The notes: generated by a model not told the origin, from the letters alone. A DNA stretch of 64,000 nt from a virus (IMGVR_UViG_3300031951_000037:1-64000); one strand, 5' to 3'. Positions 30,605-31,653 are shown, numbered from the stretch's first letter. Program-made: numbers and translations.

Positions 30605-31429
30605 ATGGACAACAATCCACTAAAGCAGTATTTTAGAAGACCAGCAGTTTATATTAGGTTACCGTCTGGCGGAAAATACTATTCATCTGACGTAATAGAA
30701 ACTTCTGAGACGGGGGAATACCCCGTATACCCAATGACCGCAATTGATGAAATTTCGGCAAGAACACCTGATGCGTTGTTTAATGGCACCGCAGTGGCCG
30801 ATCTTATCAAAAGTTGCATTCCCGCTGTCAAAGACCCGTGGTCAATCAACAGCATAGATATGGATGCAGTATTAATTGGTATTAGGGCTGCTAGCGGAGG
30901 CGACACATTAGATGTTGACTCTAAGTGCCCTGAATGCGACACTGAATCTACATATGGTATAAATTTGGTCGGGGTTCTATCTACCCTAAAGCCCGGCGAC
31001 TACAGTAAGCTGTTAGAGATTGGTGAATTAAAAATCAAATTCAGACCGTTGATGTACAGAGAAATGAATCAAGCATCAATGGCGCAATTTGAAGTTCAAA
31101 AGCATTTTGATCAACTATACAAGATTGAAGACGATGCCCTAAGAAATGATTCAGTTAAGGAAGCATTAGAAAAAATCACTTTCTTAACAATGGATATCCT
31201 CTCTCAGACAATTGAATTTGTTGAAACCCCAAATGGCATAGTTGATGACAAATCATACATTTTAGACTTCTTAAAGAATTGTGACAAAGAAGCATATATT
31301 AAAATAAGAGACTATAGTTCTGTGTTAAAAGAAGATACTGAAATTAAGCCAGCAGATATCACATGTTCAAATTGCGGGCACCAATATAAGCAGGCTTATG
31401 CTATCAACCCAACGGATTTTTTCGGTTAA
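30605..31429 (+). CDS. Baseplate-hub/tail assembly chaperone, T4 gp26-like (274 aa)
   Basis: NPLKQYFRRPAVYIRLPSGG, PMTAIDE, IRAASGG and two CxxC pairs (CPEC, CSNC); ends INPTDFFG. Confidence 0.75.
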   Translation: MDNNPLKQYFRRPAVYIRLPSGGKYYSSDVIETSETGEYPVYPMTAIDEISARTPDALFNGTAVADLIKSCIPAVKDPWSINSIDMDAVLIGIRAASGGDTLDVDSKCPECDTESTYGINLVGVLSTLKPGDYSKLLEIGELKIKFRPLMYREMNQASMAQFEVQKHFDQLYKIEDDALRNDSVKEALEKITFLTMDILSQTIEFVETPNGIVDDKSYILDFLKNCDKEAYIKIRDYSSVLKEDTEIKPADITCSNCGHQYKQAYAINPTDFFG

Positions 31430-31653
31430 GGCTTCTACATTCGCCACCTGAAGAAATCAAGAAGCTGCTAGATAGATACGATAAAGAAATTCAGGAAACC
31501 AAAGCATCCGCGCTCTCAATGGCATGGCACATGAGAGGCGGTGCTTCCTATGAGGATATATTGAATATGTCCTCAGCAGAACGGATAGAAATTTCCAAAC
31601 TCATAGAAAACAATCTTGAGATAACTAAGAAGTCTCAGCTTCCTTACTTCTAA
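31423..31653 (+). CDS. -1 frame extension of the chaperone (76 codons, gp51-like), probably reached by programmed frameshift
   Basis: Open frame RLRLLHSPPEEIKKLLDRYDKE...YEDILNMSSAER...LPYF; in-frame stop at 31387; no ATG/GTG/TTG until 31519; slippery T TTT TTC at 31417-23. Confidence 0.7.
   Translation, partial: RLRLLHSPPEEIKKLLDRYDKEIQETKASALSMAWHMRGGASYEDILNMSSAERIEISKLIENNLEITKKSQLPYF

Follow-up and report, generated by a model that had tools for sequence, protein, structure and literature searches.

The window analysed here, a 64,000-nucleotide stretch of DNA from an uncultured, T4-related freshwater phage, is part of a 126.5-kb IMG/VR virus record (IMGVR_UViG_3300031951_000037) that is estimated to be 36% complete. 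Its DNA is also represented in freshwater and lake metagenomes from approximately 16 studies, many of which are possibly source samples of the record. A gp26-like gene and the features surrounding it are listed below, with positions counted from the first nucleotide of the window.

26853–30509, minus strand: putative tape-measure/hub protein of 1218 amino acids with a lysozyme-like segment, a divergent neighbour (from the ORF list and weak matches)
30605–31429, plus strand: gp26-like baseplate-hub assembly gene, read in the 0 frame to give a short product of 274 amino acids with two CxxC pairs (from the ORF list and Pfam)
31387–31389, plus strand: TAA that closes the −1 frame 5′ of the heptamer (from the sequence)
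31417–31423, plus strand: slippery heptamer T_TTT_TTC in the X_XXY_YYZ phase, the proposed −1 shift site, conserved in related loci
31423–31653, plus strand: −1-frame extension of 76 codons (RLRLLHSPPEEIKK...KKSQLPYF) and its TAA, the predicted gp51-like C-terminal helical domain of a 349-amino-acid long product
31427–31429, plus strand: 0-frame stop codon TAA, one codon past the heptamer
31431–31465, plus strand: candidate stimulatory hairpin, unproven, in which GCUUCU (31431–31436) and AGAAGC (31460–31465) form a 6-bp stem 7 nt past the heptamer

The 0-frame ORF ends with GAT TTT TTC GGT TAA. The −1 frame is open from 31390 to the TAA at 31651–31653 and supplies 76 codons after the slip, giving a conceptual long product of 349 amino acids with the junction ..INPTDFF/RLRLLHSPPEEIKK.. 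(here and below, a slash between residues marks the point of the frame change). The first ATG, GTG or TTG in the −1 frame is that of Met 31519, located 34 codons from the start of the heptamer, and the first 32 conserved −1 codons of the window lack all three of these triplets. Contigs from two other freshwater sequencing runs, which may themselves be source samples of the window, carry the identical run of six T nucleotides without an indel. A gene-free stretch (31741–32112) starts about 90 nt past the stop codon of the long product.

Searches with the 274-amino-acid protein yielded a match to PF12322 (T4_baseplate; E = 4e-18, 66.3 bits, where the curated cut-off is 24.5 bits) in which residues 55–273 are aligned with positions 38–218 of the 219-position profile, and a match to phrog_150, ‘baseplate hub’ (E = 2e-17). 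When the whole IMG/VR record was searched the PF12322 match scored 65.9 bits, and the record fragment contains only one PF12322 gene. Nearly all of the 4009 database homologs of the protein are 274 amino acids long. Residues C108, C111, C254 and C257, which form a CxxC ... CxxC pattern, are invariant in 40 homologs, and equivalent cysteine pairs are present in T4 gp26 and in a family of in-frame long proteins described below.

An AlphaFold model of the gp26 body has a pLDDT of 85.5, and its matches in BFVD are predicted gp26-type proteins of many myoviruses. No relative of the body with a solved structure was found by sequence (phmmer, PDB), by Foldseek or by VIA-align wide, except for a generic helical hairpin with Z of about 8. 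The extension is modelled as helical (pLDDT 76); on its own it returned only noise from Pfam and PHROGs, and a sequence search of the PDB with it gave no match. Likewise, a blastn comparison of the region with 50,697 phage records returned nothing.

Conservation of the heptamer and of −1-frame coding

The heptamer was examined in 109 related loci, of which 93 are distinct and encode 92 different extension peptides; they include ten cultured jumbo phages and span protein identities of 25–90%. T_TTT_TTC is present in 108 of these loci and T_TTT_TTT in the remaining one, a degree of conservation far beyond chance. The codon that ends on the first base of the heptamer varies among GAT, AAT, AGT, ACT, CAT, CGT and GCT, always with T as its final base, and the 0-frame stop codon of the relatives lies 1–13 codons past the heptamer. 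At closer range, 25 IMG/VR loci with 48–69% identity share the invariant string GATTTTTTCG and have their 0-frame stop one or two codons further on; past the heptamer, the 18 distinct sequences among them all have exactly 76 open codons in the −1 frame.

An IMG/VR scan with the single protein P0167 gave no match. A second scan, seeded on the extension motif W[YF]MRG, recovered 80 loci, 73 of which have the split layout. TTTTTTC is present in all 73, where it is preceded by AAT, GAT, AGT, ACT or CAT.

Among cultured phages, the closest relatives are jumbo myoviruses, Rak2-like and others. T_TTT_TTC is found on the same FF motif in Atu_ph07, Phosso, PA5oct, XaC1, 7t3, GAP32, 121Q, SCTP-2 and RaK2, with a −1 frame of 72–81 residues, and Xoo-sp13 has the variant T_TTT_TTT. 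None of the 12 annotated records that we inspected (the ten isolates with a slip site, P-SSM2 and KVP40) carries a frameshift annotation, and the downstream piece in the inspected records is either not called as a gene or is named ‘hypothetical protein’.

Several observations bear on where the −1 frame is entered. Peptides translated in this frame were aligned for 28 distinct loci: the alignment is nearly gap-free, starts at the codon immediately following the heptamer and has the consensus R.[RKQ]LL..PEEI...W.MRGG.SYE.I.NMS..ER..I..II. Relatives have M, L, I or V in the column of Met 31519. Over the 32 codons preceding this residue, nucleotide entropies of 0.80, 0.59 and 1.33 at codon positions 1, 2 and 3, with position 3 the most variable, constitute a signature of coding in the −1 frame. 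Among the 93 distinct loci, a −1 stop codon is located directly 5′ of the heptamer in 23 and within 0–3 codons upstream in 53, while the position of the first possible −1 start codon ranges between −27 and +38 codons without being conserved. The length from FF to the stop codon is 78–79 residues in 84 of the 93. The scattered starts, the nearby upstream stops and the alignment from the first codon together indicate that the frame is entered at the heptamer itself. Gene callers applied to this region yield fragments of 40–99 amino acids with arbitrary starts.

Phe-Phe pairs elsewhere in the long ORFs of the window are spelled TTC TTT 21 times, TTT TTT five times, TTT TTC four times and TTC TTC four times. 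This codon-pair bias would fit an avoidance of slippery spellings.

In-frame long forms, gene counts and the T4 proteins gp26 and gp51

When 1.84 billion cluster representatives were searched with an extension profile, 384 hits were obtained, most of them −1-frame fragments. However, about 25 representatives of 319–351 amino acids carry a PF12322 body with the extension in frame at the C-terminus. DNA of such in-frame forms was taken from IMG/VR, where seven loci have the extension in frame at the DNA level and lack the heptamer. The in-frame junction, ..LD.....FR.KLI..(P/S)EE.., is colinear with the predicted DFF/RLRLL..PEE, which supports both the existence of a fused product and the direction of the shift (−1 rather than +1).

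The two layouts also differ in gene number. Each of five complete genomes with the slip-site layout (RaK2, PA5oct, S-PM2, P-SSM2 and KVP40) has one PF12322 gene, whereas each of five IMG/VR records with the in-frame long layout has two adjacent PF12322 genes, one long and one short. The short paralog in all five of these records stops soon after the body and has no extension. T4 likewise has two PF12322 genes, 26 and 51. In the genomes checked, therefore, the layouts alternate: there is one gene with a slip site, or there are two genes without one. Of all the results, this alternation argues most strongly that both forms are needed, with the slip providing the second, and it amounts to a clean natural experiment whose cultured carriers include 121Q, PBECO4, RaK2, PA5oct, S-PM2 and KVP40. 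These data directly document the heptamer and how well it is conserved, the coding capacity of the −1 frame from that point on, the existence of in-frame long proteins and the complementary numbers of genes. As a separate observation, four of the five short paralogs that adjoin in-frame long forms end with ..F(M/I)GS(S/N)F.. and lack the second cysteine pair.

Both gp26 (208 amino acids) and gp51 (249 amino acids) of T4 are full-profile matches to PF12322, with E-values of 9e-64 and 4e-52. On phrog_150, T4 gp26 ends at profile position 235 and gp51 at position 280, and the in-frame long protein P0162 matches up to position 270. T4 gp26 has the C-terminus ..KEFFELL, stopping three residues past an FF that is spelled TTC TTT, and gene 25 comes next. 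A slip site in T4 itself is ruled out by the absence of the heptamer at this FF, and frameshifting is therefore not universal in the gp26/gp51 family. T4 gene 26 (2803–3429, minus strand of the T4 record) also has an annotated nested start, 26′, which yields the C-terminal 95 amino acids; in T4, a second size variant of gp26 thus arises in another way.

The relationship of the extension to gp51 was assessed by profile comparison. With hhalign, the extension profile matched the C-terminus of a 22-member gp51 alignment with a probability of 84% (E = 7.8e-6), and a 91-sequence extension alignment matched the gp51 C-terminus with a probability of 78% (E = 1.8e-5). These matches span only 31–37 columns, at the equivalent C-terminal position. 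The in-frame family aligns with gp51 colinearly over its full length (probability 69%, E = 4.6e-5), with FR.KLI..PEEI placed opposite FKLLLNPDEIF. Precomputed tags of PF28602, a family that tags gp51 and which we take to be the C-terminal part of the gp51 family, are absent from the −1 fragments of the window’s clade, and a local Pfam scan did not report PF28602 for T4 gp51. We consider it likely that T4 gp51 is the counterpart of the long product and T4 gp26 that of the short product, with the gp51 assignment resting, in the absence of PF28602 tags from the clade, on position and on a profile comparison over about 35 residues.

Leiman et al. 2010 (PMC3004832) count gp26 and gp51 of T4 among the chaperones of hub assembly, and state that gp51 is needed for assembly without being part of the phage particle. 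The PA5oct record gives no ESI-MS/MS note for its homolog and gives one for each of three nearby structural genes, which is a weak hint of non-virion status.

Cyanophages and a marine vibriophage have been reported to carry a ‘gp51’ only about 20% as long as that of T4 (Sullivan et al. 2010, PMC3037559). In P-SSM2, S-PM2 and KVP40 the small ORF follows gp26 immediately and is in the −1 frame, and gp26 ends with (S/D)FF(V/A) and a stop codon on T_TTT_TTC. Moreover, T4 gp51 spans the conceptual junction in a single BLAST HSP with P-SSM2 (E = 3e-7) and with KVP40 (E = 7e-5). These small ‘gp51’ ORFs of cyanophages and KVP40 probably represent extensions made by frameshifting and not genes of their own, although separate translation cannot be excluded in P-SSM2, S-PM2 and KVP40, where an ATG is situated 0–5 nt past the gp26 stop codon.

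Part of this had been anticipated by an earlier, sequence-only reading of the window. Its description of the ORF end, the heptamer at 31417–31423, the TAA at 31387, the stop codon at 31651–31653 and the products of 274 and 349 amino acids held in full when rechecked against the sequence. Its condition that the heptamer be conserved among homologs was fulfilled in every homolog with the split layout, and so was its condition that −1-frame conservation not start only at Met 31519: conservation begins at the heptamer, and the column of this Met varies. The long protein was upheld as a real type of product by the natural in-frame fusions, without direct detection of the fusion here. Finally, its statement that T4 encodes gp26 and gp51 separately was correct and proved to be key, as both proteins match PF12322.

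Proposed mechanism and alternative explanations

We conclude that the gene very likely makes proteins of 274 and 349 amino acids by programmed −1 ribosomal frameshifting on TTTTTTC. In this model, most ribosomes would read GAT TTT TTC GGT TAA and release the 274-amino-acid gp26-like protein, while a fraction would slip back by one base on U_UUU_UUC, with both tRNA-Phe molecules re-pairing from UUU/UUC to UUU/UUU. The slipped ribosomes would go on to read CGG UUA AGG... and add the 76-residue helical domain, yielding a 349-amino-acid gp51-like protein with the junction ...NPTDFF/RLRLL... and with the PF12322 body common to both forms. All-pyrimidine heptamers with a UUY codon in the A site, a class to which U_UUU_UUC belongs, are prone to frameshifting in E. 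coli (Sharma et al., PMC4066793). By homology with T4 gp26 and gp51, both forms are predicted to act as non-virion chaperones in assembly of the baseplate hub, the place where the tape-measure protein is built in. That the slip takes place on the ribosome is an inference, as are its efficiency and the function of the products as chaperones; there is no protein, Ribo-seq or reporter evidence for them. The only metatranscriptome contig found spans 31155–31305 and leaves the slip site outside, and a raw-read sequencing run contained no reads of the window phage.

A stimulatory element for the shift is also unproven. The stem of the hairpin at 31431–31465 is invariant in 18 members of the clade apart from one covarying GC/GU/AU pair, and its synonymous sites are fixed (Leu as CTT, Lys as AAG AAG), while the window as a whole uses AAA about as often as AAG. 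However, the observed covariation score was reached in 65 of 500 shuffles and the fold of the window’s sequence has a z-score of −0.08, and the hairpin is thus only a candidate. We rejected it as a proven stimulator on these statistics, and the earlier remark that no clear stimulatory structure is visible therefore stands. No Shine-Dalgarno-like motif was seen upstream of the heptamer.

One alternative explanation, transcriptional slippage, would account for the same product. In this scenario RNA polymerase adds one U on the run of six T nucleotides, and normal translation of the altered transcript gives the 349-amino-acid protein. The T6 homopolymer with a one-base insertion would create the identical junction DFFR, the two processes are indistinguishable by sequence, and the window has no significant downstream RNA structure. 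On the other hand, the run consists of exactly six T nucleotides in 108 of 109 loci and never exceeds seven. Known productive sites of transcriptional slippage in bacteria are mostly runs of 8–9 or more A or T nucleotides, and longer runs would be expected in some lineages if this process were under selection. The X_XXY_YYZ phase and the UUY codon in the A site also fit tandem tRNA slippage (PMC4066793). We therefore regard transcriptional slippage as very unlikely.

A second alternative, which we judge to be equally remote, is that the locus comprises two separate genes, and that reinitiation, Met 31519 or a non-canonical start gives rise to a protein of 44–76 amino acids without any fusion. 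In its favour, annotators do call a small gene in some phages (P-SSM2 gp51, KVP40.0327 and 121Q gp595), and cyanophages and KVP40 have the ATG 0–5 nt after the gp26 stop codon noted above. However, the window offers no start codon among its first 32 conserved −1 codons, relatives vary in the Met 31519 column and their potential starts are scattered. Separate genes would also leave unexplained the invariance of the heptamer at synonymous sites and the colinearity of the in-frame fusions and T4 gp51 across the junction.

A homopolymer sequencing error, or recent decay of an in-frame 349-amino-acid gene into a pseudogene, might be entertained because T6 runs are error-prone in sequencing and in-frame versions exist in other lineages, but is all but excluded by recurrence of the layout across many studies (109 loci) and in ten isolates sequenced independently, by the contigs of two other runs that lack an indel, by retention of the 0-frame stop 1–13 codons past the site together with coding constraint in the −1 frame, and by the presence of a single PF12322 gene per genome, which would leave an essential function broken.

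Programmed ribosomal frameshifting thus remains our preferred reading. Full-text searching of the literature revealed no report of frameshifting in gp26 or gp51 genes, and the papers describing PA5oct and Atu_ph07 do not mention it. For annotation, the consequence is that the ‘hypothetical’ ORF of 40–99 amino acids, or ‘short gp51’, is probably never made alone. The affected gene is very abundant, and such an ORF is listed in thousands of genomes of T4-like and jumbo phages from the sea and from fresh water.

Comparison with known tail and baseplate assembly systems

Identification of the divergent neighbour at 26853–30509 as the tape-measure protein is possible but weakly supported. The 1218-amino-acid protein has a weak match to phrog_430 (lysozyme-like, residues 888–968) and a weak colinear similarity to the N-terminal part of a tape-measure-like ORF of RaK2 (E = 0.008), and no Pfam match at E ≤ 0.1. 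It contains a run of 11 Gly residues, a KGGKGGKGG stretch and Ala/Gly-rich segments that are probably membrane-associated. A large divergent structural gene adjoins the homolog in seven of the ten isolates (PA5oct, XaC1, 7t3, GAP32, 121Q, SCTP-2 and RaK2).

Sequence-only inspection had also put forward a chaperone pair resembling gpG and gpGT of phage lambda, encoded by a gene divergent from the tape-measure gene. The orientation holds with respect to the putative tape-measure gene, and the likeness to G/GT holds in part: the two-product logic is supported, while action on the tape-measure protein remains an inference for which there are no binding data. No similarity to gpG-type or other known tail assembly chaperones was detected by sequence or by fold. 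With this qualification, the finding offers a concrete candidate for the missing G/GT equivalent of T4, and would explain the presence of two paralogous hub chaperones, 26 and 51, in T4.

A bolder reading can be proposed, in which gp26 and gp51 are the counterpart of lambda G/GT throughout the T4 superfamily. The single-gene frameshift on U_UUU_UUC would be ancestral, a state common to cyanophages, KVP40-like phages, Rak2-like and Atu_ph07-like jumbo phages and the freshwater clade of the window, and a duplication would have put a short and a long gene in its place in T4 and a few other lineages. In the hub, the tape-measure protein would be covered by the short form; the role of the extension, present only on the rare long form, would be to bring in the first tube or hub subunits. 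Taken jointly, these propositions are in our view somewhat more likely to fail than to hold. The direction of evolution between slip site and gene pair is only inferred, and identities of 20–30% make a reliable root unlikely. If the bolder reading were true, it would remove the one stated exception (‘except T4’) to the rule that tail chaperones are produced by frameshifting (Atkins et al. 2016, PMC5009743).

The arrangement at this locus can be compared with three known systems. Like lambda gpG/gpGT (Xu, Hendrix and Duda 2004; Atkins et al. 2016, PMC5009743), it has a −1 slip site of the X_XXY_YYZ form a few codons before the stop codon of a tail-assembly gene, and is inferred from the sequence to give a short and a C-terminally extended product with a common N-terminus. 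The products in both cases are assembly factors and not parts of the virion, as judged for the window by homology with T4, and the gene adjoins a putative tape-measure gene. The heptamer of the window is U_UUU_UUC rather than G_GGA_AAG, however, and the gene does not sit between the tube and tape-measure genes but is transcribed divergently from the putative tape-measure gene. Given the two-product layout, this gene order and the lack of binding data, the likeness holds for coding logic and general role, and fails on gene order.

The small ‘gp51’ ORFs of cyanophages and KVP40 are alike in their position in the −1 frame after gp26, in the T_TTT_TTC on FF and in the presence of a single PF12322 gene. 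They differ in having a tail of only about 60 amino acids and an ATG after the stop codon, and in being annotated as a separate gene, whereas the clade of the window has no start codon there.

T4 itself encodes gp26 and gp51 as two diverged and divergently transcribed genes, in contrast to the one gene with a slip site in the window; the extension is 76 amino acids in the window versus about 48 in gp51, and the body 274 versus 208. Nevertheless, the two systems have the same PF12322 N-terminal body with its CxxC...CxxC pattern, and in both the gene adjoins hub and tape-measure genes, those of the window being putative. The short form of the window ends just past the conserved FF, as does T4 gp26 with ..EFFELL, and the helical tail of the long form aligns with the C-terminus of gp51 (..SIM.MIP.ER....L.EKD).
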